58,500 nucleotides of DNA from Candidatus Colwellbacteria bacterium (GCA_028710275.1 JAQTUL010000008.1:1-58500), one strand, 5' to 3'; shown: positions 13,267 through 50,518, counted from the stretch's first letter. Translations and numbers: made by a program. Notes: generated by a model from the sequence alone, not told the origin.

Positions 13267-13544
13267 AGTTTTCTAGGTGAATTATTTTGAGTAAACACAA
13301 ACACCACCCTGTTGGGTGGTGTTTCTATCGACCGAGTTCAAAAACACACCCCTAAGGGTAATATTTTTGATACTCGGCTGTTCGCAATTTTATTCTTCTA
13401 AGAGAATGGTGTATGGACTCTTCCGTCAGCTGAGCTGCGTTCTCCAGAGTTAAGAGTCGCTGCGAGAACGTTTCAAAAAAACTAACTAATATGGCAAAGT
13501 GCTTACATAGCAAGTATACAACATTTTGAAATAATTTAGAACAT

Positions 13545-14192
13545 ATGTCTTTATCCGATAAAGCCATCAAAGAGTTTCAGGAGATTTATAAGAAGAAATA
13601 CGGCAAAGATATTTCTCCTGAAGAAGCACGCGATGCTGGCGAGCGTTTAGTAGGCTTGTTTGAAGTTCTGTTTGATAGCCATGTTGCCGAATTAAGGTTG
13701 AAGGAGAAGCTGAAAGATCACCCAAAGGGGTTTTCTTTAATGGATGACGAGATCTATAACTGCGGTATTTGCCATACTCAGATCAGAGACGAAGAACTTT
13801 GGTATGACAAATGGGGTAAAAAGTGCCTTGCGTGCCAGGATGCAGTAAACAAGAAGATTATTCCCGGGAAGATCTGTTATAACAACAAAGATTGGTACGC
13901 TGTATGGGAGCTAGATAGCTGTTTCAAACTAAAGGCGGCGGCCGCCAGGAAGCTTATCCGACAAGGCGTCCTAAAGGCTCGTATTGTCCCAAAAAGCGGC
14001 TTTGAGGTCATTTTGTTGAAAGAGAATACCGATGTCCTACCTCCTAAGGAAATACTGAAATATGTCTCTGTACCTGTAGAGGGCAAAGAGGGCGCTTTCA
14101 GCATGACCCCGTGGTACGAAATATATGATCCCAAGAAGGTGCTAGGGAGCTATAAAATCTGGCCGTATTTAACAGCTTTTAACCAAAAATAA
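13545..14192 (+). CDS. Hypothetical protein with a CxxC...CxxC zinc-finger-like motif
   Basis: 215-aa ORF. CGICHTQI...KKCLACQ. Island cargo. Confidence 0.6.
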   Translation: MSLSDKAIKEFQEIYKKKYGKDISPEEARDAGERLVGLFEVLFDSHVAELRLKEKLKDHPKGFSLMDDEIYNCGICHTQIRDEELWYDKWGKKCLACQDAVNKKIIPGKICYNNKDWYAVWELDSCFKLKAAAARKLIRQGVLKARIVPKSGFEVILLKENTDVLPPKEILKYVSVPVEGKEGAFSMTPWYEIYDPKKVLGSYKIWPYLTAFNQK

Positions 14193-14194
14193 CT

Positions 14195-14674
14195 ATGTCC
14201 ACAAATCAGACAAGCTTTTCCTCAGAAGAGACGTCACTTATAGAAAAAGTTGAACGTGCGGTGCGGTCTTCGATTAAAACAGATTTTGAGATTCTAAAAA
14301 ATGGTAGGGTAGAAAGAAGTTTTACATCTCATCTCGCAAGAGCAATACAGGATGAGATAAGCGAGCATAACATTTATGGCGATCCCTTCTATAATAAACA
14401 TTTAGGGGCAGCTAAATATCTTAATGGTAAAATAATAGAGCTAGATGTAGCCGTTCACGAAAGAAATGTAGATACAAACAATCTGGTCGCGATAGAACTA
14501 GAAACAAATAATCACCCAGAAGGTAACGATATTTGGAAAATCGAAGGATTGACTCATAATCTCGGCGGTTATGGTTATAAGATTGGCTTGTATTTGGTTG
14601 TTGGGGTTTCAGAAAGAGCTGGGGAAATAATTACGATGGATTGGTATAAAAGTGGTAGTAAAGTGAAAATTTAG
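14195..14674 (+). CDS. Hypothetical protein
   Basis: 159-aa ORF, 3 nt after the previous gene. No motif recognised with confidence. Confidence 0.55.
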   Translation: MSTNQTSFSSEETSLIEKVERAVRSSIKTDFEILKNGRVERSFTSHLARAIQDEISEHNIYGDPFYNKHLGAAKYLNGKIIELDVAVHERNVDTNNLVAIELETNNHPEGNDIWKIEGLTHNLGGYGYKIGLYLVVGVSERAGEIITMDWYKSGSKVKI

Positions 14675-23567: not shown

Positions 23568-23628
23568 AAGATAGAATTTGGGTGTTGGTTATCATGACCT
23601 TCACTGCTTTAATAGTAATATACGGACT

Positions 23629-25149
23629 ATGGCGAACACAAATAGGAAAAAGGTTGTTCTTGTTATTCTCGATGGGTGGGGCATAGGTCCCCATGATAGT
23701 TCAAACCCCATTTATACTGCTGAACTCCCAAATATCGCCTATATCAAAAAGAATTTTCCGACAACATCCCTTCAGGCTTCCGGTATTGCCGTAGGCCTCC
23801 CTTGGGCCGAAGAAGGTAATAGCGAGATAGGACACCTTACGATAGGGGCCGGACGCACAGTCTATCAGAGTGCCGCAAGGATAAGCTTAGCCATCGAAGA
23901 CGGGTCCTTTTTTAAAAACCCTGTCCTTGTTTGGGCTATCGATGAAGCTAAGAAAGCGGGAAAAGCCGTCAATATTGCGGGACTCCTCGGAACCGGCATC
24001 ACCCACTCGTCTTTTAAACACCTTATTGCCCTTACTAAAATGGTCGGGGAAGCCGGAATCCCCTATAAGCTTCATCTCTTCACCGACGGCCGAGATAGCT
24101 CGGTAAAAGCCTGTCTAGACCTTGTTCGCAAACTTCCAGAGAATAGGATAGGCAGTATCGGGGGCCGCTTTTCAGGGATGGACCGTGATGGTCATATAGA
24201 TCGTACAGAAAGAGCTTTTAATTGTATGACTGGACGCTCTCGGTCAGAGAGCGTTAGTCCTTCCGAATATATATCATCAAGCTATGCCTCCGGAGTTACC
24301 GATGAGTTCATTCGGCCAGCTGCCTTTGGTGACGGGTCCCTTGCTGTATCCCCTGGAGATTCCCTTATATTCTTCAATTTCAGAGGTGACAGAGTAAGAC
24401 AGATATCAAGAATGTTCTCGGAAAGGATGCCGGATGTCCGAACTGTGGGCTTCACAAGATATGACGAAAGATCAGATCTTCCCTACGCTTTTTCCTTCGA
24501 AGAAATAAAAAAACCTCTTCCTGCGGTAATAGCCGATGCCGGTCTTTCTCAGCTTCATATCGCTGAAAGCGAGAAGCAGGCCCATGTGACCTACTTTTTT
24601 AATGCAGAGAGTGAGGAAACATTTCCGAGGGAGTTTAGGGTAATCATCCCATCAAGAAACACCGCTAGTCATGATAAATTTCCGGAAATGATGGCTCCGG
24701 AGATAACAACGCGTATAGTGACAGCCGTCGAAGAGGGGCTATATGATTTTATCATCGCCAATTATGCGAACGCTGATATAGTGGCTCATACTGGAAATTT
24801 CGATGCCACGATAGAAGCTGTCCGCTGTCTTGATACACAGATAGGAATGATTGCTGAAGCGACTGTCCGGACAGGAGCAGCCCTTATAATAACCGCCGAT
24901 CACGGAAACGCCGAAAAACTTATTGACACAAGGACTGGCGAGAAGGATACTCGTCATAATCCCAACCCCGTCCCGTTCTTCCTTATAGATAGGGATATGC
25001 AACGACTAAGGACTGATGCGGAAATAGCTGAATCCGAAGTTCTTAACTCTGGAACCCTTTGCGATATAGCTCCTACCGTTCTAGAATTGATGGGAATAGA
25101 GAAACCAGTCGAAATGACCGGCCAAAGCCTTATACCATTTCTTAAATGA
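23629..25149 (+). CDS. gpmI: 2,3-bisphosphoglycerate-independent phosphoglycerate mutase
   Basis: VVLVILDGWG, ADHGNAE and NPVPFFL. ATG 23629 gives the canonical N-terminus. The ORF track starts at 23578. Confidence 0.9.
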   Translation: MANTNRKKVVLVILDGWGIGPHDSSNPIYTAELPNIAYIKKNFPTTSLQASGIAVGLPWAEEGNSEIGHLTIGAGRTVYQSAARISLAIEDGSFFKNPVLVWAIDEAKKAGKAVNIAGLLGTGITHSSFKHLIALTKMVGEAGIPYKLHLFTDGRDSSVKACLDLVRKLPENRIGSIGGRFSGMDRDGHIDRTERAFNCMTGRSRSESVSPSEYISSSYASGVTDEFIRPAAFGDGSLAVSPGDSLIFFNFRGDRVRQISRMFSERMPDVRTVGFTRYDERSDLPYAFSFEEIKKPLPAVIADAGLSQLHIAESEKQAHVTYFFNAESEETFPREFRVIIPSRNTASHDKFPEMMAPEITTRIVTAVEEGLYDFIIANYANADIVAHTGNFDATIEAVRCLDTQIGMIAEATVRTGAALIITADHGNAEKLIDTRTGEKDTRHNPNPVPFFLIDRDMQRLRTDAEIAESEVLNSGTLCDIAPTVLELMGIEKPVEMTGQSLIPFLK

Positions 25150-27583: not shown

Positions 27584-29374
27584 ATGAATCAAGAAAAAAA
27601 ACCAGAGAGAAGGCCCCGCTCTGCCCAAAGAGGCGGAGAAAAACGCCCCCTCCATACCGCCAATCGGATAGTGCGTCCAACGAGACACAAGGAAGTCGCC
27701 CCTGAAGATGGAGAACCCATCCTTCATTTTGCAGCCCTCGGCGGCCTTGAGGAGATAGGAAGAAATATGTCCTTCTTCGAATATGAAAATGAGATAGTAG
27801 TCATTGATGCCGGAATACAATTTCCAGAAGAGGAGACTCCGGGCATAGATTACATTATCCCTAATGTCTCCTATCTTGAACCTAAAAAGGGCAACATTAA
27901 GGCCCTTATAATAACCCACGGTCACTTCGACCACGTCGGAGCTATCCCCTACATCATAGGAAAGCTTGGTAACCCCCCGATATACACAACCGCCCTTGCT
28001 AGAGAGATGATTGTGAAGCGTCAGAGCGAATTTGTTAACGCTCCAAAGCTTGATGTCCGCGTCATAAAGGATGGGGACAAAGTCAGACTCTCAGAAAACT
28101 TCGAAGCTGAATTCTTCGGCGTCTCTCATAGTATTCCCGATACGACTGGCTTCATCCTTAAGACCCCCGTCGGTAATATGGCTAGCTTTGCCGACTTCAA
28201 GGTAGAGGCAGATTCGGATGGAAAACCGATAAACATCGAAGAACTAAAGAAGATAGCAGATAAGAATATTCACACTCTCTTTATTGACAGCACTAACGCA
28301 GAAACGGCCGGCTGGTCTCTCTCCGAAAGAGTTGTTGAAAAAAACCTGGAGGATCTCTTTGCAAAGATAGAAGGTCGCATTATTGTAGGCATTTTCTCAA
28401 GCCTTTTATCAAGAATAGCCGAAATAATAAAGATAGCTGAAAAACAGAACCGTAAGGTCGCTTTTTCCGGACGCTCCATAAAGGAAAATGCCGAGATAGC
28501 CAGACGCCTAGGTTATATCAAAATAAAGAGCGGCACGATTATCTCTCCTGAAGAGGTGTCGAAGTATGATGATAATAAGGTCCTTATTCTTTCGACCGGC
28601 GCTCAAGGAGAATCTAACGCTTCTCTCATGAAGATAGTAACCGGAGAACACAAATCTCTCCGTATCAAGCCCGGCGATTCCATTGTCTTCTCCTCATCAG
28701 TCATCCCCGGCAATGAAAGAAGCGTCCAATCCCTTAAAGACAATCTCGTCCGTCAGGGAGCCATGGTCTATCACACTAAGGTTATAGACATCCACTCTTC
28801 AGGACACGCCTCTCAGGAAGAGATAAAAGCGATACTCTCAATCGTTAAACCGAAGTTCTTTATTCCCGTCCATGGATATCTCTTTATGAGGACGGTTAAC
28901 GCTAGGAACGGCGTAGAGTCAGGTATTAAAAAGGAAAATATCTTTCTTCCAGATAACGGTCAAATCGTCGCCATAAAAAAAGATGCGATGAAGATTACCG
29001 ACGTGGAGATACCCTCAAACTACATAATGGTCGATGGCCTCGGTGTCGGTGATGTTGGGGAAGTTGTTCTTCGCGACCGGAGATTACTTGCCCAAGAAGG
29101 AATGATCGTCATAATAGCGACTATTTCCAGAAAGGACGGTAAGCTCGTCAAAAACCCAGATATCATCTCGAGAGGGTTCATCTATCTTAAAGAAAATCAG
29201 AAGATATTAGAGGATATCCGCACCAAGATAAAAGGTATAGTCACGAGACTTCCTCACGATCGATCGGTAGACGCCGATTATCTGAAAACCCTTTTCCGGG
29301 ATCAGGTCGGCCAGTTCGTTTATAGCAAAACATACCGTCGCCCGATGGTCCTGCCAGTCATCATAGAAGTCTAA
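27584..29374 (+). CDS. rnj: Ribonuclease J
   Basis: Metallo-beta-lactamase motif ITHGHFDHVG, a beta-CASP region, the HSSGHASQEE motif and a basic N-terminal extension. Confidence 0.9.
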   Translation: MNQEKKPERRPRSAQRGGEKRPLHTANRIVRPTRHKEVAPEDGEPILHFAALGGLEEIGRNMSFFEYENEIVVIDAGIQFPEEETPGIDYIIPNVSYLEPKKGNIKALIITHGHFDHVGAIPYIIGKLGNPPIYTTALAREMIVKRQSEFVNAPKLDVRVIKDGDKVRLSENFEAEFFGVSHSIPDTTGFILKTPVGNMASFADFKVEADSDGKPINIEELKKIADKNIHTLFIDSTNAETAGWSLSERVVEKNLEDLFAKIEGRIIVGIFSSLLSRIAEIIKIAEKQNRKVAFSGRSIKENAEIARRLGYIKIKSGTIISPEEVSKYDDNKVLILSTGAQGESNASLMKIVTGEHKSLRIKPGDSIVFSSSVIPGNERSVQSLKDNLVRQGAMVYHTKVIDIHSSGHASQEEIKAILSIVKPKFFIPVHGYLFMRTVNARNGVESGIKKENIFLPDNGQIVAIKKDAMKITDVEIPSNYIMVDGLGVGDVGEVVLRDRRLLAQEGMIVIIATISRKDGKLVKNPDIISRGFIYLKENQKILEDIRTKIKGIVTRLPHDRSVDADYLKTLFRDQVGQFVYSKTYRRPMVLPVIIEV

Positions 29375-29413: not shown

Positions 29414-29481
29414 TTCCGTCACCGACTCCCCGATATCTCAGTTCTTTGCCTGTCCTCTTTTTCCTCGCTATTATTAGTTCC

Positions 29482-30462
29482 ATGAAACCGATAATTGTAA
29501 GCGGCATAAAGCCTAGCGGTAAATTGCACCTGGGTAATTATCTAGGTATGGTGAAAAAATCTATAGAGCTTCAATCGTCCGGGAAATATGATTGTCACTA
29601 CTTCATAGCCGATTATCACGCCCTTACCCAGAAATATAAGCCCGAAGAGAAAGCTGCCGATATATTCGAACTCGCGGTCGATCTCCTCGCTCTGGGAATA
29701 GATCCGGAGAGGTCTGTATTTTTTATGCAGTCCGATATCTTAGAACACGCCAACCTCGCTTGGCTCTTTGATTGCATCACTACCGCCGGACAACTCCAGG
29801 GAATGATCGAATTCAAAGAAAAGGTTCAGGAAGGCCAACCCGCAAGTGTCGGCCTCTTAAACTATCCCGTACTGATGGCTGCGGACATTTTGGCCTATAA
29901 AGCCGCTTTCGTCCCAGTAGGAGAAGACCAAAGACAACACTTAGAACTTACCCGCGATGTCGCAAGAACCTTTAATAAGAGGTTCGGAGAAACGTTCCTT
30001 GAGCCTAAAGGTATATTCGTCGAAGGATTAAGGATAAAAAGCCTCGATATTCCGGAGAAGAAGATGTCAAAGTCTCTCCCTAAAGGATGCCTCTATCTAA
30101 CCGACTCAGCCGAAGCAATGAAAAAGAAGGTTCGTTCTGCCGTCACCGACTCCGGAACCGAGGTTGTCTATGATCCAGTAAATAAGCCTGCTCTGGCAAA
30201 CCTTATTCTCATCTATTCCGAGATGACCGGCAGAACCGCAAATGATATTGTGGCTGAGCATAAGGATTCTGGATATGCCAAATTCAAAGATGCGATGGCC
30301 GTAGCCGTTTCATCTTCACTTATCGAGTTTAGGGAGAAAAGGGCCGATATCGCCGCTCACCCAAAGAAGGTGCGCGATGTAGTGAATATTGGCGCCGAGA
30401 AAGCAAGGATTATAGCGGCGAAGACCCTTAAAGAAGTAAAGGAAAAAATGGGATTAATATAA
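29482..30462 (+). CDS. trpS: Tryptophanyl-tRNA synthetase
   Basis: SGIKPSGKLHLGNYLG (HIGH-type motif), KMSKS and GEDQRQHLELTRD. ATG 29482 gives the canonical start. The ORF track starts at 29446. Confidence 0.9.
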   Translation: MKPIIVSGIKPSGKLHLGNYLGMVKKSIELQSSGKYDCHYFIADYHALTQKYKPEEKAADIFELAVDLLALGIDPERSVFFMQSDILEHANLAWLFDCITTAGQLQGMIEFKEKVQEGQPASVGLLNYPVLMAADILAYKAAFVPVGEDQRQHLELTRDVARTFNKRFGETFLEPKGIFVEGLRIKSLDIPEKKMSKSLPKGCLYLTDSAEAMKKKVRSAVTDSGTEVVYDPVNKPALANLILIYSEMTGRTANDIVAEHKDSGYAKFKDAMAVAVSSSLIEFREKRADIAAHPKKVRDVVNIGAEKARIIAAKTLKEVKEKMGLI

Positions 30463-30535: not shown

Positions 30536-33500
30536 TCACGCTTTTCTTACTCCGAGTCGGATATCCCTACCGTCTATTTTTGTCTCAAGACTTGCGCGGT
30601 CATCATCCGACACTCTCTCCTCTATCTTCTGAAGAGATAATATAGACATCGCCTCTTTCTCAAATGACATAATCGAGCGGATGATTCCTTCATCTCCAGA
30701 AATAGAAAGTATCGCCTGTTCTCCGGGATTAAGTCCGGCCTTCTGTCTGAGGTCTTGTACAGAACGGACCGCTTCTCTGAACAAGCCTTCTGCCTTTAGT
30801 TCTGTTGTTATCTCATTATCTATCCACCCGCCTAATGGAACAGCCTCATCATAGATTACCTTCTTCACGTTCACTTCATCGGCTAAAAGACCCAAAAGCT
30901 CCTTCTTCCCCTTTAGGGATTTAACGGAGAACTTGTAGGTCATAAGAGGCTGCTTCACCTTAATGCCTGTTTCCGACCTCCTCGCCAACGCCTCAGTCGT
31001 CAAAACCCTAAGTTCTGCCATATCCCTTATAAGTGTCTTGTCCTTTTGAGAAAGATTCATTGCTTTAGGCCAATCTTCTAAATGAACTGACTTCTTACCG
31101 CTCTTTCCCGTAAGAGAAAGATATACAGCCTCAGAGATGAACGGCGAAAAGGGCGCAAGCAGCTTCGAAACGGTGATAAGTACGTCATACATCGTCTTCC
31201 CGGCAGCATAAGAATCATCTCGGTCATCCGGTCTCTGTAGTCTAGTTCTTGACCGCCTTATATACCAATTAGAAAAATCATCCAGGAAATTGATTATCGG
31301 CCTCGTGGCATCAGTAAGCTCATAGAGCTCCATCTCCTTAGTTATGGCAATAATCGTCTCGTCTAGCCTCGCTTTTATCCACCTGTCGGCTATCGATTCC
31401 TTCTTTACCGGGGCAGCGAATTTCTTTTCAAGATCCCCGTTGGCGTACATCCGGAGAAAATTGTATGAGTTAAGAAATCTGTCGACAATCTTATTCTTTG
31501 TCTCAAGTACCCCTTTGTCGGCGAATCTATAATCCTCTCCTATCGAAGTAGATGACAGAAGGAAAAATCTAACAGCATCGGCGCCGTATTTATCGAATAC
31601 TATCTCAGGCTCTGTATAATTTCTGAGCTTCTTAGAAAGTTTTCTTCCAAACTCATCAAGGACTAGACCGTTCACAATCACATTCTTAAACGCGGGCTTA
31701 GTCTTTCCGAGTCCAATATCTTTTTTAGTCAGAGCCGAAGCAAGAACATGTAAGGTATAGAACCACCCCCTCGTCTGATCGAGACCTTCGGCTATGAAAT
31801 CGGCCGGGAACATTTCTTCCACTTTTTTCTTATTCTCGAACGGATAATGCCAAGAGGCATAAGGCATCGATCCTGATTCGAACCAGCAGTCGAAGACCTG
31901 ATTTATTCTCTTTGCCTTTCCGTTGCACTTTGGGCACTTCACTTCAGTCTCGTCTATGTAGGGACGATGAAGGTCAAGTTCTCCCGTTCTTGAGAATGGC
32001 AGCTTCGAGAACTTTATTTTCCTCCACTCTCCGGGCTGTATCAAATTTTTTCTCGAATCGTCTATCTGCTTTTCGTTATATCCCTTTATCGCCCCTTCCA
32101 TAACCCAAAGCGGATCACCATGGCTTATGATAAGGATATTCTTATCTTTGACCGATGAATCTATGTCCGTCATAAAAGAGATCATCCTAGCCCTTACCGA
32201 ACGCAGGTTCTCTCCTCCTTCTGGGGTCTTCTCAAACTTGTTGATATGCGGACCCATATATTCCTCGAATTGTTCTACGGGCTTTCCGTTCCACTCCCCG
32301 ACAGAATATTCTGCAAGCCTTTCATCGACGATTATCTCTACCTTCAGTTTATCCGCTAATATTTGGGCGGTCTCCATCGTTCTTCTGAGAGGCGAGGTGT
32401 ATATGACGTCTATTTTCGATTGTTTAAGCTCTTTTGCCGCCTTTTCAGCCTCTCTTATTCCCTTCTTTGTTATATTTATTTCCGTTTTCTCTGGTAATGA
32501 CGAAAAGATATTAAGAACATTTGAATCGGATTCCCCATGACGCATTATGAAATATTTATTTCCCGAAGAAGCGGAAAGTCGGTTAAGCTCCTTTAACGAG
32601 CCGACAGCCGTCATCTCACCGCAATCATCACATTTCCATACTGGTATTGGAGCTCCCCAGAATCGGTTTCTTGATATAGCCCAATCCCTTACATCGGCCA
32701 ACCATTTTCCAAATCTGCCATTTTTCAGATGCGAAGGAACCCAATGAGTCTTGGTGTTGTTCTTAAGCAGGTCTTCTTTTATCTTCGTAACGGATACATA
32801 CCAGCCCTCTATTGGATAATAGAGAAGCGGCGTATCACATCTCCAACAGAAGGGATATGAATGTCTTATGGTTCCCTCCTTAAAAAGGATTCCTTTCAGC
32901 TTTAGGTGTTCTATTATCTCCTTATCCGCCTTCTTAACAAACATCCCAGCCCAAGGAGTGACTTCGGGCTTAAATTTCCCTTCCTCGTTAACAGTGAGTA
33001 TCATCGGAAGACCGTTTTTCTTACCGGTCTCCATATCATCAACTCCAAAGGCCGGAGCTGTATGGACTATACCGCTGCCATCCTCGGCCAAAACATAGTC
33101 GGCAGTGACGACAAAATGAGCCTTTTCATCCGTCTCTGCGAAATCGAATATCGGTCTATATTTCTTGCCTTTTAAATCTTTTCCTTTGTACTCGGCGACG
33201 ATATCGTGACGGACACCTTCCATCACCGAAGAAACTCTATCTTTGGCCATGATAAGAAACTCTTTTCCGTTCGCTCCGTCATAGGCAACCTTAGCGTACT
33301 TAATGTCGGGACCAACAGCGAGTGCGGCGTTCGCGGTCAGCGTCCAAGGAGTAGTCGTCCAGGCAAGGAAATAGGTAGGAATATTATCATCTGGCTCGGC
33401 TGCCTCGAATTTGACGTATATCGCCGGATCATCGGTATCTTTATAACCCTGATTAACCTCGAAATTAGCCAACGGAGTTCCGCACCTCGGACAGTATGGA

Positions 33501-34033
33501 GCGACCCTGTAATCGGAATAAACTAATCCTTGATCCCACAATTGCTTGAATACCCACCAGACGGACTCCATATAATCGTTATCGAGCGTTGCATATGAAT
33601 TTTCATAATCAGCCCAACGACCCACTCTCTGTAAGGTTTTCTGAAAATCACCAACAGACCTAAAAACGGCCGCGCGGCAGGCATTGTTGAAATTTTCCAT
33701 TCCCATCTCAAGAACAGCCTTTTTATCCCTAAGTCCTAGCTCCTTCTCTATAAGATTCTCTACTGGAAGCCCATGGCAATCCCAACCCACCCGTCGTTCC
33801 ACCTTAAAGCCCCGCATCGTCCAGAAGCGGGTTACTGAGTCCTTTATCGTGGTCGCGAGGATATGGCCATAATGAGGCAGTCCGGTCGCGAACGGAGGAC
33901 CGTCATAGAAGGAGAACGTCCTACTCTTCTTTCTCTGGGCAATAGTCTTCTCAAATATCTGGTTCTCGGCCCAGAATTTCAAAACATCCTCTTCTATCTT
34001 GGAAAGATCCGTTTTTTCACCTGGCTTAAGCAT
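30536..34033 (-). CDS. ileS: Isoleucyl-tRNA synthetase (type 2) with an inserted histidine-phosphatase domain
   Basis: HYGH, the CP1 editing domain WTTTPWTL, KLSKK (KMSKS variant) and an anticodon-binding domain. Residues about 488-684 contain RHGESD...SHGD, the phosphoglycerate-mutase-like family signature. Confidence 0.92.
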   Translation of the reverse strand: MLKPGEKTDLSKIEEDVLKFWAENQIFEKTIAQRKKSRTFSFYDGPPFATGLPHYGHILATTIKDSVTRFWTMRGFKVERRVGWDCHGLPVENLIEKELGLRDKKAVLEMGMENFNNACRAAVFRSVGDFQKTLQRVGRWADYENSYATLDNDYMESVWWVFKQLWDQGLVYSDYRVAPYCPRCGTPLANFEVNQGYKDTDDPAIYVKFEAAEPDDNIPTYFLAWTTTPWTLTANAALAVGPDIKYAKVAYDGANGKEFLIMAKDRVSSVMEGVRHDIVAEYKGKDLKGKKYRPIFDFAETDEKAHFVVTADYVLAEDGSGIVHTAPAFGVDDMETGKKNGLPMILTVNEEGKFKPEVTPWAGMFVKKADKEIIEHLKLKGILFKEGTIRHSYPFCWRCDTPLLYYPIEGWYVSVTKIKEDLLKNNTKTHWVPSHLKNGRFGKWLADVRDWAISRNRFWGAPIPVWKCDDCGEMTAVGSLKELNRLSASSGNKYFIMRHGESDSNVLNIFSSLPEKTEINITKKGIREAEKAAKELKQSKIDVIYTSPLRRTMETAQILADKLKVEIIVDERLAEYSVGEWNGKPVEQFEEYMGPHINKFEKTPEGGENLRSVRARMISFMTDIDSSVKDKNILIISHGDPLWVMEGAIKGYNEKQIDDSRKNLIQPGEWRKIKFSKLPFSRTGELDLHRPYIDETEVKCPKCNGKAKRINQVFDCWFESGSMPYASWHYPFENKKKVEEMFPADFIAEGLDQTRGWFYTLHVLASALTKKDIGLGKTKPAFKNVIVNGLVLDEFGRKLSKKLRNYTEPEIVFDKYGADAVRFFLLSSTSIGEDYRFADKGVLETKNKIVDRFLNSYNFLRMYANGDLEKKFAAPVKKESIADRWIKARLDETIIAITKEMELYELTDATRPIINFLDDFSNWYIRRSRTRLQRPDDRDDSYAAGKTMYDVLITVSKLLAPFSPFISEAVYLSLTGKSGKKSVHLEDWPKAMNLSQKDKTLIRDMAELRVLTTEALARRSETGIKVKQPLMTYKFSVKSLKGKKELLGLLADEVNVKKVIYDEAVPLGGWIDNEITTELKAEGLFREAVRSVQDLRQKAGLNPGEQAILSISGDEGIIRSIMSFEKEAMSILSLQKIEERVSDDDRASLETKIDGRDIRLGVRKA

Positions 34034-34090: not shown

Positions 34091-35302
34091 TTACGAGAGG
34101 GCTCTTTTAAGCCTTTTTACCCCTTCCCTCGCCTCAGCAATAGTGTTCTCCGGGCCGAAACTTATTCTTATACTCTCCTTTATCCGTTTTTCGGCCAACC
34201 CCATAGCTGAAAGAACATGGCTTGGCTTAAAACTTTTTGCTCCGCAGGCTGATCCGTATGATATCGCCACTCCTGCCATATCCGCCTTCATAAGGATATC
34301 AGCAGAATAATTCCCCGGAATCCATATATTGAGAATATGAGGAGATAATCTCTTCTCGCCCCCCTTTCCTATCGGGCCGTTCAGTAAGGCTCTCGGAAAC
34401 GCTTTTTTAAAACCATCCCAAAATATTTCTTTTACCTCTTTTACTTTTCTGAAATTCTTTTCCCTTCCTTTTTCCGCGATAGAAAGGGCTAGGCCGAAAC
34501 CGACAATCGCTTCGGTATTCTCCGTTCCAGCTCTCATTCCATACTCCTGGCCGCCCCCGGTCACGATAGGATATATCGTCTTTCTGATATCGTATTTACC
34601 TATATTACGGGCAACAAGAGCACCAATCCCTTTCGGACCGCCTATCTTATGCGCAGACAAAGTCAGCATGTCGGCCTGAAGCGTATCTAGTGAGGTTGGA
34701 AAATATCTCAGATATTGAACGGCATCTGTATGGAATATCGGGTAAGGAAACTCCCTATTCATATCTGCATTCCTCTTCTCCCTTATTTCCCTTACGGCAT
34801 TGCCTATCCTGGCAACCTCCTGTATCGCTCCAGTCTCATTATTGGCAGCCATTACTGAAACAAATATAGTCCTGTCGTCTATCTTAGATATCACATCTTC
34901 CGCGCAAACCAGACCATCACGTCCCGCTGGGACGACAATGACTTCCGCCCCTTCCTCGCTTAGGTCAGCGACCGTATGTATCAAGGAATCATGTTCTATG
35001 CCTGATATGATAATCCGCGGAGGAATCATCGCCTCCGATCTAAACGAGCGATAGAACGCCTTAAACGCTCCCCTTACAGCCATATTATTGGCTTCTGTCG
35101 CCGATCCGGTAAATATGACGGAACGAATGTCCGTTCCAATGACAGATGCCAATATCTCCCTTGATGTGTCCGCCGCCGCGGCAGCATCTCTGCCTAAAGA
35201 ATGGATAGAAGACATATTCCCCTGCGGGACATCAGCCATCGCCTTTCTTACCCGATTATCTACGGGCGTCGTCGATGCATGGTCAAAATAGAGTGTTCTC
35301 AT
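34091..35302 (-). CDS. Cysteine desulfurase (NifS/IscS class V aminotransferase)
   Basis: PLP-lysine motif LSAHKIGGPKG and active-site cysteine SYGSACGA. Confidence 0.85.
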   Translation of the reverse strand: MRTLYFDHASTTPVDNRVRKAMADVPQGNMSSIHSLGRDAAAAADTSREILASVIGTDIRSVIFTGSATEANNMAVRGAFKAFYRSFRSEAMIPPRIIISGIEHDSLIHTVADLSEEGAEVIVVPAGRDGLVCAEDVISKIDDRTIFVSVMAANNETGAIQEVARIGNAVREIREKRNADMNREFPYPIFHTDAVQYLRYFPTSLDTLQADMLTLSAHKIGGPKGIGALVARNIGKYDIRKTIYPIVTGGGQEYGMRAGTENTEAIVGFGLALSIAEKGREKNFRKVKEVKEIFWDGFKKAFPRALLNGPIGKGGEKRLSPHILNIWIPGNYSADILMKADMAGVAISYGSACGAKSFKPSHVLSAMGLAEKRIKESIRISFGPENTIAEAREGVKRLKRALS

Positions 35303-35867
35303 TTAAGGCTTCTCTTATTTTAGGACCAAGATCAAAGGATACCTTTACCGCCTCATCCGTTCCTCTTTGAGGAACCATGAGAAAACCCTGAGTTTTAACG
35401 AGATCATATAAATCCTTCGTCACTTTCACGTCATTGCGGCAATAATCCTCAAGCTCCTTTAGATTTCCTTCGTTCCAGAATTTGACCGCTTCCAGCCCAT
35501 TATGAGTCTTTCCTACTCCGAGATTCTGTACGGCTAGAAGATCAAGGCCTATCCTTCTTCCATATACAACCTCTATCTCTTCAAGGAGGTCTATTCTCTT
35601 TAGGGCTTTGGTATTGAAATCAAAATACTTATCAAGCACCGGCAAATCGAACCTATTTATACTGAAGCCAATAATGAGAGCGGCTTCTTGCATCATCTTT
35701 CCGAGCTCCGCCATATCCTTTTCCCAAAAGCTCATATATTCGTTCCTGTTATAGGAATAGAGACAGGTCAGGGACATATTAAGATCCTTTATATTATCCT
35801 GTCCTCCTACGTCAAAAAAAGTGTTTTTTGTCTCTATGTCTATTACAAGTATGTCCTTGGAGTTCAT
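35283..35867 (-). CDS. RNase H-fold 3'-5' exonuclease-like protein (PolB-exonuclease related)
   Basis: ILVIDIETKN (Exo I), GFSINRFDLPVL (Exo II) and YCRNDVKVTKDLY (Exo III). Confidence 0.7.
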   Translation of the reverse strand: MNSKDILVIDIETKNTFFDVGGQDNIKDLNMSLTCLYSYNRNEYMSFWEKDMAELGKMMQEAALIIGFSINRFDLPVLDKYFDFNTKALKRIDLLEEIEVVYGRRIGLDLLAVQNLGVGKTHNGLEAVKFWNEGNLKELEDYCRNDVKVTKDLYDLVKTQGFLMVPQRGTDEAVKVSFDLGPKIREALNENTLF

Positions 35868-35919: not shown

Positions 35920-36810
35920 CTATCTTTTGCCCTGAATGAGCGATTCTAACACTCGGAGCTCTTTTTGCAAAACATCTTCCGACCTGGCCTCGAGATTAAG
36001 CCTAATGACTGGATCATTAGACGAAGCTCTTATATTGAACCAAAAATCCTTAAACTCCATTGAGAGTCCGTCGAGTTCGGATATCTTTGGCTTCTTTCTT
36101 GAATAATTGCGTCGGATATCCGATATCACCTTATCCTTGTCGCCTACCGAAAAATTCGTCTCGGGTATCCGGTGCTGTTCTTGGCTGTCTATCCAAGCCG
36201 ATATGGAACCCATTGAAGATATGGCCGAAGCCATCGAAAGTGCCATTAGGATTGCGCCATCCATATAGGCGCCCTTTATTTTAAAATAATAATGGCCAGC
36301 CCTTTCGGCTCCGAAGTCTATCTTATTCGCGATCATCTCCTTCTTTATGAAGTAATGACCGACTTTTGATATCACGAGTCTAATCTTAGTTCTCTCCCTT
36401 ATCGCCCACCCCGTCCTGACGTCGGCCACCATCGCCGCGATTTTTTTCTTCTCCGCATAAAACTTAAAAATCATGTCCGGATCGATTTCTCTGCCTTTAT
36501 CGTCTACAAATATAGCCCTATCAGCATCGCCATCGAAAGCAACACCCATATCAGCGTTATTCTTTATCACTTCGTCACTAAGGGTTGCCATAGCCTCCGG
36601 TATCATAGGATTTGGACCATGGCCCGGAAAATCTCCATCCGGTTTTGCATTAAGATATATGGGCTTAATATTAAGAACACCTTTAAGAGTCGCTTTGATA
36701 ACATCTCCGGCGTAGCCATTAGAACAATCGAAGACTATCCTAACTGACCTTTTAAAAAGAGCTTTACTTCTCAGGAAGCTTGCGTATTCGTCTATATATT
36801 TACCCTTCAT
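35920..36810 (-). CDS. Phosphomannomutase/phosphoglucomutase, domains II-IV (downstream piece of a split gene)
   Basis: Metal-binding loop FDGDADR, RASSNDP (similar to the family's serine loop) and a C-terminal domain. The first 11 nt overlap the domain I ORF in another frame. Confidence 0.75.
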   Translation of the reverse strand: MKGKYIDEYASFLRSKALFKRSVRIVFDCSNGYAGDVIKATLKGVLNIKPIYLNAKPDGDFPGHGPNPMIPEAMATLSDEVIKNNADMGVAFDGDADRAIFVDDKGREIDPDMIFKFYAEKKKIAAMVADVRTGWAIRERTKIRLVISKVGHYFIKKEMIANKIDFGAERAGHYYFKIKGAYMDGAILMALSMASAISSMGSISAWIDSQEQHRIPETNFSVGDKDKVISDIRRNYSRKKPKISELDGLSMEFKDFWFNIRASSNDPVIRLNLEARSEDVLQKELRVLESLIQGKR

Positions 36811-37192
36811 TTTCCTCGATTATCTTTTTAGTATCGAAGCCGTTCAAGGGAACGGCTTTAGGACCGACTATTTTTAACCCATTCCATTCGGAGGGACTAT
36901 GGGATGCCGTTACCATCACTCCTCCAGCCGCCTTATTGGCTGCCACGGAAAAATAGAACATCGGACTCGTCGAAGGCCCGACCTTCATTATCTCTCTACC
37001 CCTTAAGGCTTCGATCACAGCCTTATAAAGCGCCGGTGAGCTGTTTCGGGCATCATGAGCGATAACTATCGGACCTTTTTTGAAGAATCTGACGTTCAAA
37101 GAAGACACGATGTGGCGGACGACATCTTCATCAATCTCCGCCGGATATTTACCTCTTATATCGTAGGCTCTGTATATCGAAGGATTGATCAC
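36800..37192 (-). CDS. Phosphomannomutase/phosphoglucomutase, domain I (upstream piece of a split gene)
   Basis: RAYDIRGKYP and the active-site loop VTASHSPSEWNGLK. Confidence 0.75.
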   Translation of the reverse strand: MINPSIYRAYDIRGKYPAEIDEDVVRHIVSSLNVRFFKKGPIVIAHDARNSSPALYKAVIEALRGREIMKVGPSTSPMFYFSVAANKAAGGVMVTASHSPSEWNGLKIVGPKAVPLNGFDTKKIIEENEG

Positions 37193-47962: not shown

Positions 47963-48033
47963 AGCGGGATACCGGAATCGAACCGGCGCCATCACCTTGG
48001 CAAGGTGGCGTACTGCCACTATACTAATCCCGC
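47963..48033 (-). tRNA. tRNA-Gly(GCC)
   Basis: Reverse complement gives GCGGGAT..., anticodon loop TTGCCAA, T-arm GCCGG-TTCGATT-CCGGT, discriminator U. Confidence 0.88.
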
Positions 48034-48115
48034 TTTTACTCCCCTTTGAAAGAATACGATATTAAATCTAGCCGAAGATTTGCACGTTGTAAAGAAAACC
48101 GATAATATAGAGCTC

Positions 48116-48724
48116 ATGTTCCGGAAATGTCTGATTTTCGGGGGTATATCGGCCGCTTTTATAGCGGTCGCAACGCTTTCCGTATACCTATACACTAGGC
48201 CTATTGAGATACCGAAAAGCTTCACTGAAGCCAGAGGAAGAGGAGCTGATATAGCTTCTGCTATAAACGATTTTTCCGACCAAGCGAGGATAAGTCTAGA
48301 CGAGATAGTTAAAAGCGATAGGGAGGGAGATTATACCAAAGCACTCGATCTTACTATTATCGAGATAAAGAGGACTCGCGAAGCGAAGGATAAGGCAATC
48401 GAACTTCTGGGAGAGCTTCAGGAGATGGCTTCCGCTCTGGGAGAAATAAAGGCGGAAGGCCCTCAAAGCATAGGCATGCAGGCCGTATCAACCGAAGTAG
48501 GCTTAGTAAGCAAGCTAATCGAATATAATACCGATCTTGATAACCTTCTTAATAATATGAGAATGAAATTTGCTAGCTATCAGCCTGAAACATTCGATAA
48601 GGAAACAGAAGCTATCACAAAAAGAATGAATGATATCGCCCTCGATATAAATGGATCTAGTAGGAAATATCAGTCATTGATGAAGGAGTTCGATGAGCGG
48701 ACTGAAGCAAAAAAAATATTCTAG
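48116..48724 (+). CDS. Membrane-anchored hypothetical protein
   Basis: ATG followed by the TM helix CLIFGGISAAFIAVATLSVYLY. The ORF track starts at TTG 48080. Confidence 0.55.
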   Translation: MFRKCLIFGGISAAFIAVATLSVYLYTRPIEIPKSFTEARGRGADIASAINDFSDQARISLDEIVKSDREGDYTKALDLTIIEIKRTREAKDKAIELLGELQEMASALGEIKAEGPQSIGMQAVSTEVGLVSKLIEYNTDLDNLLNNMRMKFASYQPETFDKETEAITKRMNDIALDINGSSRKYQSLMKEFDERTEAKKIF

Positions 48725-48745
48725 GATACAAAAACACCCCGATAT

Positions 48746-48767
48746 GGGGTGTTTTTATTTATGGGTG
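48746..48767. repeat. Direct repeat GGGGTGTTTTTATTTATGGGTG (copy of the tRNA-His 3' tip plus trailer/terminator arm)
   Basis: Exact 22-bp match to 49712-49733. Confidence 0.8.
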
Positions 48768-48915
48768 CCGTCGTAGAGGAAGTTAGAACCGCATTAAAAG
48801 GCTATTGATTTATCATACCAGCCATGTAATACTCCAAATGTCTTTCGGTCCAACCATGGACTGGAAGGGTATCACATCCAAGAGCTGCCCTCCGCAAGGA
48901 GGGCAGTTTTAAATA

Positions 48916-49464
48916 CTATTCAGGTCTACGCTTTATATCCCTCCCCCAAACGTCATCCTCTAACTCGAGAATATCTGAATAACCATCTCCTCCGGTTCTT
49001 AATTCTCTTGAAATGTTATTTTTTGAAGAAAAGATAAAAACTTTCTTGCCTTTCCTTTTTAGATAAGTAACTAGAGCCAAAAAATCAGCATCTCCCGAAA
49101 AGAAAACAGCCGTATCATATTCATAAGAAAAATGGATTGCATCGATTGTTAACTCAACATCCATATTCCCCTTTTCTTCAATAATTTCACCTTCTTCGGT
49201 ATTTATACTTATGCGTTTTAATTCTTTCTTTCTAACAATAAAACCAAGACCCTTCTTTAAAAAAGTGAAAAACTTATGTTTTCCTTCTAAATTATAACTC
49301 CTAGTACCATCAGCCGGATAAGCAGTATAGTAAAAAACTTGAACATTTTGATCCTTAAATTTTTCCTTAATAAAGGCTAGTAACTTCTCATAATTAAGAA
49401 ATTTACCTTTTGCCTTTTGTGCCTCCCATAGATTAGACGCATCTATAAAAACGCTAATAGCCAC
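48916..49464 (-). CDS. NYN-domain (LabA/DUF88-like) putative RNase
   Basis: VFIDASNL...MDVELTIDAI...AVFFSGDADFLALVTYLKRKGKKV is the NYN/PIN-like acidic motif pattern. Confidence 0.7.
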   Translation of the reverse strand: MAISVFIDASNLWEAQKAKGKFLNYEKLLAFIKEKFKDQNVQVFYYTAYPADGTRSYNLEGKHKFFTFLKKGLGFIVRKKELKRISINTEEGEIIEEKGNMDVELTIDAIHFSYEYDTAVFFSGDADFLALVTYLKRKGKKVFIFSSKNNISRELRTGGDGYSDILELEDDVWGRDIKRRPE

Positions 49465-49535
49465 ATAGGAAGATTATCAGACTTTAACCCAAAAATCCCC
49501 TTCATTAGAAAATTATTTATCCTTTATAAACGATA

Positions 49536-49698
49536 GGTGTCTAACGGGAATCTCACGTCGTCGCTCCGTCTCCGCTTACGTTCCGCATCGCTCCTCTATG
49601 AAACCTCTCGGTTTCATTACTTCCTCCACGGGGCGCTCCCGGCGTGCCCCGACCCCCTGACTTGTTCGAATCCCTCCCAACCACTGCATAAATAAAAT
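49536..49698 (+). ncRNA. tRNA-3'-end-associated structured module, copy B (next to tRNA-His)
   Basis: Starts with GGTGTCTAACGGGA, the same 14 nt as 49730-49743. Has conserved GTCGTCGCTCC, hairpins AAACC/GGTTT and GGGGCGC/GCGTGCCCC (with a G.U pair only on this strand) and GTTCGAATCCC at 49664-49674. A terminator follows. Confidence 0.45.
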
Positions 49699-49729
49699 AC
49701 CCCTCCTAAGAGGGGTGTTTTTATTTATG

Positions 49730-49802
49730 GGTGTCTAACGGGATTCGAACCCGTGCCGGAGGCTCCACAAACCTCAGTGCTAACCACTACACCATAGACA
49801 CC
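49730..49802 (-). tRNA. tRNA-His(GTG) with encoded G-1
   Basis: Reverse complement gives G-GTGTCTA..., anticodon stem GAGGT/GCCTC with loop TTGTGGA, T-arm ACGGG-TTCGAAT-CCCGT, and an 8-bp acceptor including G-1:C73. Confidence 0.88.
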
Positions 49803-49979
49803 ATACATTTATGAAAGCGCAGGCTCATTGTAGCCGAAATCCGGCTTAAATCAAACCATGCCTGCAGAAGAGTAAATAAGGTCACCTGCGCGCCTTTTAA
49901 ACCGATTTCCCGTCTCTTTTCAAGCACTCAGATAACTGCTATCTTCTCTGAAGAGATCTTTTAAAAGGAGTGGTCGATA

Positions 49980-50423: not shown

Positions 50424-50443
50424 CCGGTCTTTTATTTTCTTTA

Positions 50444-50518
50444 TGGTGCCGCGGGAGGGAATTGAACCCCCGACACGACGCTCTTCAGGCGTCTGCTCTA
50501 CCACTGAGCTACCACGGC
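50444..50518 (-). tRNA. tRNA-Phe(GAA), CCA encoded
   Basis: Reverse complement gives GCCGTGGTAGCTCAGTGGTAGAGC, anticodon stem GACGC/GCGTC with loop CTGAAGA, then ...GCGGCACCA. Confidence 0.9.

Follow-up and report, generated by a model that had tools for sequence, protein, structure and literature searches.

The window analyzed here, a stretch of 58,500 nucleotides from a Candidatus Colwellbacteria bacterium, encodes an isoleucyl-tRNA synthetase (IleRS) that carries a histidine phosphatase domain inserted in its core. An IleRS of this kind is apparently undescribed. The first-pass annotation knew of no aminoacyl-tRNA synthetase (aaRS) with a histidine phosphatase, a statement that held up in our literature search, in which no paper describing such a domain inserted in IleRS was found. 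Nor does the insert stand alone: His_Phos domains have been captured repeatedly by IleRS and valyl-tRNA synthetase (ValRS), and it forms part of this wider pattern. The aaRSs are among the most studied of all enzymes, and the accessory domains they carry mostly serve RNA binding, editing, or protein interaction. What is found here is a conserved, apparently active phosphatase of the metabolic type within the IleRS core.

Host synthetase and limits of the insert

The ileS gene is a single continuous ORF on the minus strand (30536..34033, stop codon at 30536-30538; all ileS features below lie on the same strand) encoding a complete protein of 1165 aa. The whole protein scores 898.9 bits against the TIGR00392 ileS model (cutoff, 621.4), the match falling in two stretches that flank the insert, and Pfam likewise detects tRNA-synt_1 in two stretches with His_Phos_1 (PF00300) between them. 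The type 2 structures 1ILE, 8C8U, and 8WND match at E values of 2e-230 (1ILE) to 1e-214, while matches to the type 1 structures 8C9E and 1FFY are weaker (E = 2e-98). In agreement with a type 2 assignment, Foldseek searches with the full-length AlphaFold2 model (mean pLDDT, 92.4) gave 1ILE, 8C8U, and the yeast and human cytosolic IleRS as best matches, with target-normalized TM scores of 0.86 to 0.94. Judged by its sequence, the host is a full type 2 IleRS with all synthetic and editing motifs.

The first half of the Rossmann fold catalytic domain (~aa 1-197; 33443..34033), its limits set by homology to the published maps of Candida albicans and Saccharomyces cerevisiae IleRS (PMC7191050, PMC7955072), contains the HIGH motif as HYGH (aa 54-57), with H54, G56, and H57 nearly invariant. 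It is followed by the CP core and CP1 editing domain (~aa 198-400; 32834..33442), identified from invariant columns and editing-domain structures: WTTTPWT (aa 225-231), H324, and D333 are invariant in 118 sequences, and aa 196-394 are matched by 1WK8 and 1UE0, structures of the editing domain on its own. The first zinc motif pairs C181/C184 with C396/C399, again invariant columns in the 118 sequences. CP2 and the CP2-CP3 linker (~aa 401-460, including VRDWAISRNRFWG; 32654..32833) were recognized by the residues D450, W451, R455, R457, W459, and G460, all invariant in the same set; the equivalent yeast segment, ScIleRS 453-ARDWNVSRNRYWG-465, lines the tRNA 3′-end/reveromycin pocket (PMC7955072).

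The N-terminal part of CP3 (aa 461-487; 32573..32653), with the block PIPVWKCDDCGEM at aa 462, lies directly upstream of the insert and contributes the first CxxC of the CP3 zinc knuckle, of which C468 is invariant and C471 nearly so (118 sequences); a zinc motif in CP3 is known from Thermus thermophilus IleRS (PMC7191050). The C-terminal part (aa 685-714; 31892..31981) opens with ELDLHRPYIDE at aa 685 and supplies, beside DLHRPYID, the second CxxC (C700/C703); H689, P691, D694, C700, and C703 are invariant in the 118 sequences. The next segment (~aa 715-860; 31454..31891), with the block DCWFESGSMPYA at aa 715, takes in the Rossmann fold's second half together with the stem-contact fold. It was positioned by its motifs, DCWFESG and KLSKK (aa 798-802), the latter being the KMSKS motif of this protein (K798 and K801 invariant in 118 sequences). 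The anticodon-binding domain (aa 883-1030; 30944..31387; Pfam Anticodon_1, E = 6.7e-29) and a C-terminal DUF5915 domain (aa 1071-1164; 30542..30823; PF19302, E = 5.7e-09), the latter also present in nearly all of the IleRS relatives listed, complete the protein. The frame is thus continuous and the synthetase motifs on either side of the insert are intact, as the first-pass annotation had stated.

Alignment with type 2 IleRS delimits the insert to the CP3 zinc knuckle. It comprises 197 residues (aa 488-684; 31982..32572), i.e., a complete branch 1 histidine phosphatase domain plus short linkers, with limits taken from the comparison with insert-less relatives and identical to those originally proposed. 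The conserved elements GS.KEL and DLHRPYID, between which an interruption of some 200 aa had been claimed, are separated by only 2 to 14 residues in 13 close insert-less IleRS (939 to 998 aa), compared to ~200 here. The insert splits the peripheral CP3 zinc-knuckle subdomain at a surface loop of the catalytic core. The type 2 enzymes of T. thermophilus (1ILE) and Priestia megaterium (IleRS2, 8C8U) share with the window protein the domain order, the HIGH and KMSKS motifs, CP1, both zinc motifs, and the C-terminal domain; in contrast, the CP3 loop is empty in all solved IleRS (in 1ILE the equivalent gap corresponds to residues 479-487). That this loop tolerates a 200-aa enzyme domain is useful for engineering. 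A curated precedent for an IleRS with an extra enzymatic domain exists in NF040702 (ileS_w_GNAT), but there the additional domain is a GNAT rather than a His_Phos, and the window protein, which matches the IleRS portion of the model, is not a member (320 bits; cutoff, 1999); no acetyltransferase domain was detected by Pfam in the window IleRS.

Family placement and catalytic residues

The Pfam His_Phos_1 envelope covers aa 495-658 (32060..32551; E = 2.4e-37, 128.9 bits with a cutoff of 21.7), and together with the fold matches described below it bears out the first-pass assignment of the segment as a histidine phosphatase. Within it lie the RHG motif (R498, H499, and G500; 32534..32542) and an SHGDP motif with the second catalytic histidine, H638 (32111..32125). 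The RHG, the second arginine, and the distal histidine had been described as intact, and they are also conserved: R498, H499, S547, G579, E608, R616, and H638 are invariant in all 104 homologues compared (46 to 100% identity), R551 is kept in 103 of them, and position 575 is Glu or Asp throughout. This conservation indicates that the catalytic residues are under purifying selection. The region, a complete and independently folding domain, is modeled with a pLDDT of 90 to 97 in the full-length AlphaFold2 prediction and 90.6 when folded alone. By these sequence criteria, the inserted domain is very probably an active phosphatase. H499 would be the phosphoryl acceptor (predicted nucleophile), with R498, R551, and H638 holding the phosphoryl group and E575 acting as the general acid.

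Among solved structures, the insert comes nearest in sequence to PspA from Hydrogenobacter thermophilus (4IJ5, E = 3e-18), followed by PhoE from Bacillus stearothermophilus (1H2E). With the insert-only model, Foldseek returned a probability of 1.00 for dPGMs, PspA, GpgP, and CobC (TM scores, 0.6 to 0.79) and also matched the riboflavin-pathway HFP; the top E values belonged to dPGMs and the tightest superpositions to short phosphatases. The insert shares with PspA, PhoE, mycobacterial GpgP (4PZ9), CobC, and HFP (9MMH) the fold, a length of ~190 to 210 aa, and the Arg-His...Arg...Glu...His constellation. These enzymes are, however, free-standing and have defined metabolic substrates, whereas the insert is embedded in a synthetase and scores below the cutoff of each of their models tried, with 91.9 bits for PspA (NF045917; cutoff, 350) and 92.2 bits for the alpha-ribazole phosphatase CobC (TIGR03162; cutoff, 162.9). 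The match to SixA (TIGR00249) reached 39.8 bits, with a cutoff of 74.5, and covered the N-terminal 80 residues only. A phage library search gave as sole match a PHROG of unknown function.

A glycolytic dPGM hidden in IleRS, filling a missing glycolytic step, might be suspected from the Foldseek E values and from the best NCBIfam match, dPGM_arch. That match nevertheless attains only 113.1 bits with a cutoff of 225, pgm_1 gives 58.6 bits (cutoff, 81.7), and the scores for every PRK dPGM model are far under their cutoffs. The domain is also short (~190 aa compared to ~250 aa for dPGMs) and superposes most tightly on short phosphatases, and a cofactor-independent PGM (iPGM) is encoded in the window at 23578-25149. 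Read by eye against the E. coli GpmA sequence, the insert presumably has neither the longer dPGM segment nor the dPGM residues beside the catalytic Glu. We consequently rejected the dPGM as very unlikely, since the equivalog cutoffs are failed and an iPGM is at hand. By sequence, the insert is best classified as a short-form PhoE/PspA/CobC/GpgP-like phosphatase and not a phosphoglycerate mutase; the description “phosphoglycerate-mutase-like” given in the first-pass annotation holds for its fold only.

Distribution of the insert and of related domains

The same in-frame architecture at the same site was found in more than 100 independent protein clusters defined at 90% identity. A relative of the domain is encoded by 346 GTDB species representatives. 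In the 80 best of these the match extends into IleRS on both sides at this position (site A), so that at least 80 species-representative Patescibacteria genomes have the insertion, among them the complete genomes CP011209.1 and AP024682.1. The recurrence supports the original view of an internal domain insertion as opposed to a fusion artifact, and it excludes an assembly chimera or gene-calling error, an explanation to which we assign next to no probability: the clusters derive from many studies and assemblers, two of the genomes are closed, the GC content does not shift at either junction of the insert (0.41 to 0.46), and AlphaFold2 models the whole chain with confidence.

Insert-bearing lineages include Colwell-, Jorgensen-, Wolfe-, Lipton-, Harrison-, Nealson-, and Niyogibacteria, and the host of the window sequence is itself an ultrasmall Patescibacteria/CPR bacterium. 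Divergence of the insert correlates with that of the IleRS body (r = 0.68). The insertion is old, is common to many Patescibacteria lineages, and codiverges with the synthetase. In the tree of IleRS bodies, insert-less enzymes are scattered among insert-bearing ones, and one of them (P0110) shares 75% identity with an insert-bearing sequence and just 60% with its nearest insert-less relative. Because such enzymes are nearer to insert-bearing IleRS than to each other, we read the pattern as repeated precise loss, and the scatter itself marks the module as accessory. Its repeated loss demonstrates that the synthetase can function in its absence. At two insert-less loci (L003 and L004), no free-standing His_Phos gene, the signature of a fission, was found within ±10 kb of ileS, nor was a second His_Phos copy seen in the window or in 86 ileS neighborhood loci (760 kb). 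Upstream of ileS, Rfam gave no match, whether to a T-box or to any other leader.

Three further IleRS sites (B, C, and D) and two sites in ValRS also hold related His_Phos domains, as mapped by excising the domain and then aligning the remainder. The positions range from CP3 through the beginning of the second Rossmann half to that of the anticodon-binding domain, and some proteins carry two to four copies. In domain trees (neighbor joining, ~180 columns, low resolution) the copies at sites B, C, and D and those of ValRS fall into separate clades, from which we infer independent capture at four IleRS and two ValRS surface sites. Free-standing homologues of ~190 aa, at least one of them a genuine separate gene, are intermixed with the inserts in these trees. 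The best 150 representatives include ~96 non-free domains, nearly all of them in IleRS. Recurrent capture at several IleRS and ValRS sites argues for a selective advantage of coupling the phosphatase to these two editing synthetases.

Rare fusions to ArgRS (3 clusters), TsaC (~5 clusters), and ATP sulfurylase (Sat) were also found; each partner passes its own model cutoff, and the genes are real and located on long contigs. The Arg and His of the RHG, like the catalytic constellation as a whole, are kept in the other host contexts as well; the Sat-fused copies have an RHA motif and a Gln at the proton donor position. The sat fusion gene adjoins a sulfotransferase, and for these copies a role as a PAP-type 3′-phosphatase would fit at least as well. 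Patescibacteria TsaC is in addition fused to MGMT, TruB, LigT-like, Nudix, and GNAT domains; as such a promiscuous partner, its fusion to His_Phos says little. The ArgRS fusion may be the product of a deletion between adjacent argS and ileS genes. As evidence for a link to adenylation, which they might be expected to support strongly, the ArgRS and TsaC fusions are weakened by their rarity, the promiscuity of TsaC, and the possible argS-ileS deletion.

Possible functions of the inserted phosphatase

The best explanation overall, which we hold tentatively, is that of an active phosphatase tethered to IleRS and ValRS and acting on a diffusible by-product of adenylation. The domain would be an accessory third catalytic module, dispensable for aminoacylation and beneficial when tethered to these synthetases; that it is functionally coupled to the synthetase reaction is a proposition we consider evenly balanced. 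With so many insertion sites and copies, precise geometry relative to the synthetic site cannot matter, which favors a diffusible small molecule over a fixed macromolecule such as the tRNA end; the first-pass annotation had suggested substrates of both kinds, a phosphorylated nucleotide or metabolite and a tRNA 3′/2′ phosphate. What unites the hosts (IleRS and ValRS, more rarely ArgRS, TsaC, and ATP sulfurylase) is the conversion of ATP to X-AMP plus pyrophosphate (PPi), which makes an adenylation by-product the most parsimonious choice. The substrate would then be a phosphorylated by-product of adenylation and editing. PPi heads the list of candidates, and taking it away would pull the adenylation step forward.

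The analogy behind this proposal is provided by the ATP sulfurylase-inorganic pyrophosphatase fusions of stramenopiles and haptophytes, which their authors read as pulling an unfavorable equilibrium (PMC2275785). There too, a PPi-releasing adenylate-forming enzyme is joined to a phosphohydrolase, but the latter is a bona fide family I pyrophosphatase with a fold unrelated to His_Phos. In sequence, the insert is unrelated to pyrophosphatases of family I or II. To our knowledge, no branch 1 histidine phosphatase hydrolyzes PPi, and PPi as the specific substrate, suggested by analogy, is doubtful. No family I pyrophosphatase was detected in the window and the 86 ileS neighborhood loci (760 kb) with an approximate E. 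coli Ppa sequence as probe. The RHG domain of MutT1 was dropped as a precedent for phosphoanhydride cleavage, as its role, earlier called unknown, has been described as that of a SixA-like phosphohistidine protein phosphatase (PMC12407098).

It is possible, though on the unlikely side, that the insert is an ordinary phosphatase for small molecules (phosphoserine, a sugar phosphate, or a cofactor intermediate) with a job apart from aminoacylation. It would have landed in a surface loop able to accommodate it, the host gene being essential and constitutively expressed and the lineage fusion-prone, and would be retained for the usefulness of its own activity. Such hitchhiking would be in keeping with the intermixed free-standing homologues, with the metabolic roles of the nearest characterized relatives (PspA, PhoE, GpgP, CobC, and the riboflavin-pathway HFP), with the ease with which Patescibacteria fuse unrelated housekeeping domains (TsaC with MGMT, TruB, Nudix, or GNAT), and with a location in a peripheral, variable subdomain of an enzyme that, to go by repeated loss, can dispense with it. 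The hosts are, however, far from random, given the predominance of IleRS among non-free domains of the best 150 representatives, and the use of at least six distinct internal IleRS/ValRS sites, often with multiple copies, would be unlikely under neutral hitchhiking. Terminal fusions are, moreover, much commoner than insertions within a conserved enzyme core. The tRNA end offers a substrate closer to the synthetase: the domain might strip a 3′- or 2′-phosphate or a 3′-pyrophosphate, left by ribotoxins, cyclic phosphate ends, or toxSAS-type pyrophosphorylation, from the acceptor end of the tRNA, which the same enzyme then charges. The insert does start ~25 residues past the CP2-CP3 linker that in yeast IleRS lines the tRNA 3′-end pocket, the main hosts IleRS, ValRS, and ArgRS all bind the tRNA 3′ end, and TsaC is otherwise fused in the same phylum to tRNA/RNA-end enzymes (TruB and a LigT-like cyclic phosphodiesterase). 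We nonetheless consider this improbable, as sites in CP3, the second Rossmann half, and the anticodon-binding domain are spread too widely for each to have access to the acceptor end, ATP sulfurylase binds no tRNA, and the PADLOC-DB defense models matched neither the insert, the whole protein, nor a free-standing homologue. We know of no branch 1 histidine phosphatase that acts on RNA ends.

Somewhat less probable again is a role on proteins, either as a phosphatase of the SixA, MutT1 C-terminal domain, Sts, or PGAM5 type acting on the synthetase or a partner, or as a dimerizing or scaffold module comparable to the appended domains by which multisynthetase complexes are put together in eukaryotes. 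Histidine phosphatases commonly dimerize, tandem multicopy inserts would suit self-association, and the CP3 of human IARS1 is the docking surface for LARS1. A purely structural role, on the other hand, needs no strict conservation of catalytic residues. MutT1 (Nudix plus RHG) and the mycobacterial RNase H/acid phosphatase NF005567 resemble the window protein in placing an RHG domain on a nucleotide or RNA enzyme, and the MutT1 C-terminal domain is precisely a phosphohistidine protein phosphatase (PMC12407098). Both are, unlike the insert, end-to-end fusions; the insert scores 89 bits against NF005567 (cutoff, 326), SixA, which the MutT1 domain resembles, is its weakest family match, and its closest relatives are small-molecule phosphatases. 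Nor do we know of a kinase partner or phosphosite.

As for the tethered phosphatase acting on an adenylation by-product, it would represent a new way to drive aminoacylation in minimal genomes, whereas a tRNA end as the substrate would amount to a built-in tRNA repair step. More generally, class Ia synthetases of ultrasmall bacteria may have repeatedly gained, beside their synthetic and editing sites, a third catalytic center, a histidine phosphatase acting in cis on their own product (PPi, another by-product, or a blocked tRNA 3′ end), a generalization that is conceivable but rather unlikely; were it true, an aaRS would itself push its reaction forward, or mend it, with no need of a separate housekeeping enzyme. 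Ready-made controls exist in nature, in the form of IleRS with and without the insert and of the insertions at multiple sites described above.

Insertion of a histidine phosphatase domain into the CP3 zinc knuckle of IleRS

The first-pass annotation, which had proposed that a histidine phosphatase domain interrupts isoleucyl-tRNA synthetase (IleRS), was supported overall. The ileS gene of the window is one unbroken open reading frame (ORF) encoding 1165 aa (30536-34033, reverse strand), and the proposed insert coordinates, 31982-32572, correspond exactly to aa 488-684. A Pfam search found the tRNA-synt_1 class I core (E = 6e-134) divided into two stretches with a His_Phos_1 domain (PF00300) between them (aa 495-658; E = 2.4e-37; 128.9 bits, gathering score 21.7), together with Anticodon_1 and a C-terminal DUF5915. 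The single ORF, the flanking tRNA-synt_1 halves, and a GC content that is level over both junctions confirm that the insert is real.

Judged by its sequence, the host enzyme is an intact member of the type-2 IleRS. It scores 898.9 bits against the NCBIfam ileS equivalog cut-off of 621.4, and the synthetase motifs are preserved, as had been claimed: HIGH as HYGH (aa 54-57), KMSKS as KLSKK (aa 798-802), the WTTTPWT editing-domain motif, H324, D333, and both zinc motifs. All motifs quoted in the annotation were found in the translation. A full-length AlphaFold2 model built on a 118-sequence alignment (mean pLDDT 92.4, pTM 0.86; insert region 90-97) superposes on the type-2 IleRS structures 8C8V, 8WND, and 1ILE with target-normalised TM scores of 0.86-0.94. 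The insert is absent from every solved IleRS structure.

In a joint alignment, the segment from "GS.KEL" to "DLHRPYID" spans about 200 residues in the window protein versus 2-14 in proteins without the insert, delimiting the insert as the first reading had suggested; the equivalent gap in Thermus thermophilus IleRS is residues 479-487. Two CxxC pairs, C468/C471 and C700/C703, invariant or nearly so in 118 relatives, flank the segment, placing the phosphatase, on this alignment, within the zinc knuckle of CP3, a peripheral and variable subdomain.

No substitution occurs at R498, H499, S547, G579, E608, R616, or H638 among 104 insert-bearing sequences; 103 of them have R551, and only Glu or Asp occurs at position 575. 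The RHG motif, second-arginine region, and distal His noted initially are thus intact, and by sequence the conserved set represents the complete catalytic constellation of branch-1 histidine phosphatases. With a mean pairwise identity of 0.42 versus 0.70-0.72, the insert evolves faster than the catalytic core, at a level comparable to the C-terminal (0.38), editing (0.52), and anticodon (0.51) domains. Insert and IleRS body diverge in parallel (r = 0.68), the pattern expected under vertical co-inheritance.

Short-form enzymes are the nearest solved sequence relatives of the insert, among them phosphoserine phosphatase PspA (4IJ5) and PhoE (1H2E). When the insert is modelled alone (pLDDT 90.6), its best superpositions are on PspA, GpgP, and the riboflavin-pathway HFP (rmsd 2.6-3.0). 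No curated NCBIfam equivalog cut-off was reached by the insert (dPGM, PspA, CobC, SixA, and GpmB all scored below), which precludes assigning a specific substrate; the insert classifies as a Pfam His_Phos_1 member of no curated functional subfamily. It looks like a working phosphatase rather than a mutase and is very probably active. A role in supplying glycolytic phosphoglycerate mutase (PGM) activity was ruled out by a cofactor-independent PGM gene (iPGM_N plus Metalloenzyme; 23578-25149, forward strand) lying roughly 5 kb away from ileS, which gives the organism a conventional PGM. Both the insert and one free-standing homologue also match phrog_12933 (PHROG 12933, E = 9e-31), a phage family without known function, indicating that phages too encode related histidine phosphatases.

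Distribution across Patescibacteria

The insertion is widely shared among candidate phyla radiation (CPR) genomes, for which a search had been suggested. A whole-protein search retrieved more than 100 distinct 90%-identity clusters with both PF00133 and PF00300 (46-72% identity), along with close relatives of 939-998 aa lacking PF00300. One degenerate pattern scan of GTDB species representatives (one genome per species) found a relative of the domain encoded in 346 genomes; in all of the best 80 of these, the match spans both IleRS flanks. The best 80 include Colwell-, Jorgensen-, Wolfe-, Lipton-, Harrison-, Nealson-, Niyogi-, Azam-, and Campbellbacteria, Paceibacterota, and other Patescibacteria, with two closed genomes (CP011209.1 and AP024682.1) among them. 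Public records label these sequences only "class I tRNA ligase family protein" or "isoleucine--tRNA ligase."

In a neighbor-joining tree of the IleRS body minus the insert, insert-less sequences are dispersed among insert-bearing ones. The insert-less P0110, for example, shares 75% identity with the insert-bearing P0055 but just 60% with the closest protein lacking the insert, and P0104 and P0114 show the same pattern. The simplest reading of these comparisons is one ancient insertion followed by several precise losses, and on the same grounds the His_Phos module is accessory and dispensable for aminoacylation.

Other insertion sites and other hosts

An insert-alone phmmer scan of 1.84 billion representatives gave 21,868 matches at E < 1e-3. 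The best 150 comprise about 85 IleRS (full or fragmentary), about 50 free-standing proteins of about 190 aa, and a few other architectures, including tandem 2×His_Phos proteins. Of 283 domain matches placed on the window-protein numbering, about 186 fall at the position of the window insert (site A). Three further IleRS sites were recognized, namely, B (~700-707, after the second CxxC), C (~727-737, after HYPF), and D (~865-868, start of the anticodon-binding domain). Some IleRS carry two or three copies (P0142, P0178, P0209 and its cluster, and P0246); proteins with two or three domains off site A are P0142, P0178, P0209/P0273, P0246/P0276, P0194, P0245, and P0263. The P0209/P0273 gene lies at 10001-14260 of locus L086; P0273 is on a 1.06-Mb contig, near genes for an SLH-domain protein, DAHP synthase, and adenylosuccinate synthase.

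ValRS carries inserts at two positions. P0121, a ValRS N-half with four His_Phos domains (1161 aa, running off the end of a 3.9-kb ENA metagenome contig), has one between the editing/CP-core region and CP2 and three in tandem after "RIPVWY," a position homologous to the IleRS site. Other hosts are ArgRS with a C-terminal His_Phos (P0179, passing the argS cut-off), TsaC/Sua5 with a C-terminal His_Phos (P0135, passing the TsaC cut-off, and P0204), and a His_Phos-PUA-ATP sulfurylase (Sat) protein (P0196). The ArgRS, TsaC, and Sat fusions are real genes on long contigs. Catalytic residues are kept in all copies except the Sat-fused ones, which have RHA and a Gln at the proton-donor position.

In a low-resolution domain tree, one large clade mixes site A inserts, free-standing proteins, and ArgRS-, TsaC-, and Sat-fused copies, while most B, C, and D copies, the ValRS copies, and the 2×His_Phos copies form separate clades, which indicates that the latter were acquired independently.

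Insert-less relatives have the conserved gene order SmpB-ArgRS-IleRS-RecO (L003, 8239-12910; L004, 1948-12871, with other genes between ArgRS and IleRS). At L001 (10001-12070), ArgRS with its C-terminal His_Phos is directly followed by RecO with no ileS in view, suggesting that this fusion may have arisen when a deletion brought argS together with the phosphatase portion of an adjacent ileS. Among relatives of P0135, patescibacterial TsaC (Sua5/YrdC) is fused to many unrelated partners, most commonly MGMT-type PF01035, and also TruB, a LigT-like cyclic phosphodiesterase (PF07823/PF13563), methylpurine glycosylase, Nudix, GNAT, and His_Phos. P0196 (L002, 10001-12536) directly precedes a sulfotransferase gene within a glycosyltransferase-rich cluster, with no APS kinase domain in view; a PAP-phosphatase role would fit a Sat-fused domain in this position.

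Possible roles and genomic context

The IleRS-tethered phosphatase domain is intact and conserved, has been captured repeatedly and independently by IleRS and ValRS, and is dispensable. Whether its activity is functionally coupled to the synthetase is, in our estimate, evenly balanced. Because the insertion sites lie on different enzyme faces and copy number varies, exact geometry seems not to be essential, a point in favor of a diffusible substrate, or of simple co-localisation, and against a fixed macromolecular one, for example the tRNA 3' end. A tRNA-end phosphatase is accordingly quite unlikely, even with the CP2-CP3 linker, which lines the tRNA 3'-end pocket in yeast IleRS (PMC7955072), lying just upstream of the insert in the window protein (VRDWAISRNRFWG). 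CP3 is also the surface of human IARS1 where LARS1 docks (PMC13439101); a protein-phosphatase or scaffold role appears highly unlikely.

All host enzymes convert ATP to an adenylate and pyrophosphate (PPi), and IleRS and ValRS spend additional ATP in editing cycles. ATP sulfurylase fused to a genuine inorganic pyrophosphatase occurs in some eukaryotes, an arrangement interpreted as drawing an unfavourable equilibrium forward (PMC2275785). By analogy, the insert might clear a phosphorylated by-product of adenylation, PPi being the first candidate, and we infer this to be the most parsimonious unifying idea. PPi specifically is an unlikely substrate; we know of no precedent for its hydrolysis in this phosphatase branch, which counts against it. 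The caveats on by-product removal are substantial, as the ArgRS and TsaC fusions are rare, TsaC is promiscuous, and the ArgRS fusion is possibly a deletion product. The main rival, a hitch-hiking metabolic phosphatase, seems somewhat unlikely.

The finding belongs with synthetases carrying appended or inserted accessory domains, for which IleRS with GNAT (NF040702) is a curated precedent bearing an additional enzymatic domain. The RNase H/acid phosphatase protein and MutT1 are known RHG phosphatase fusions to nucleotide enzymes; the published account of MutT1 does not bear out its domain as a precedent for phosphoanhydride cleavage. Like the first-pass annotation, a full-text literature search, with most subscription journals outside its coverage, yielded no description of a histidine phosphatase domain in IleRS or any other aminoacyl-tRNA synthetase. 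Three features are unusual here: the accessory domain is an enzyme of metabolic type, it lies within the catalytic core, and it was acquired repeatedly. Because IleRS and ValRS have captured such domains at multiple sites and in multiple copies across Patescibacteria, the case holds more interest than a lone odd gene would.

In the window, ileS is flanked by genes for RNase J (27584-29374, forward) and a convergent TrpRS (29446-30462, forward) on one side and, on the other, by a class-V aminotransferase/cysteine-desulfurase-like gene (34091-35302, reverse) that overlaps by 20 nt a gene for a small RNase_H_2-superfamily protein (35283-35867, reverse). An Rfam search detected neither a T-box nor any other leader RNA upstream of ileS. 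A phosphoglucomutase/phosphomannomutase-like gene (35920-37192, reverse) is split: domain I (36800-37192), which contains the active-site motif TASHSP, and domains II-IV (35920-36810) lie in two ORFs of different frame that share 11 nt. A frameshift, a sequencing error, or a pseudogene could explain this. Seven tRNA genes form a loose cluster on both strands (47963-53313), and a tmRNA gene lies at 56616-56966.
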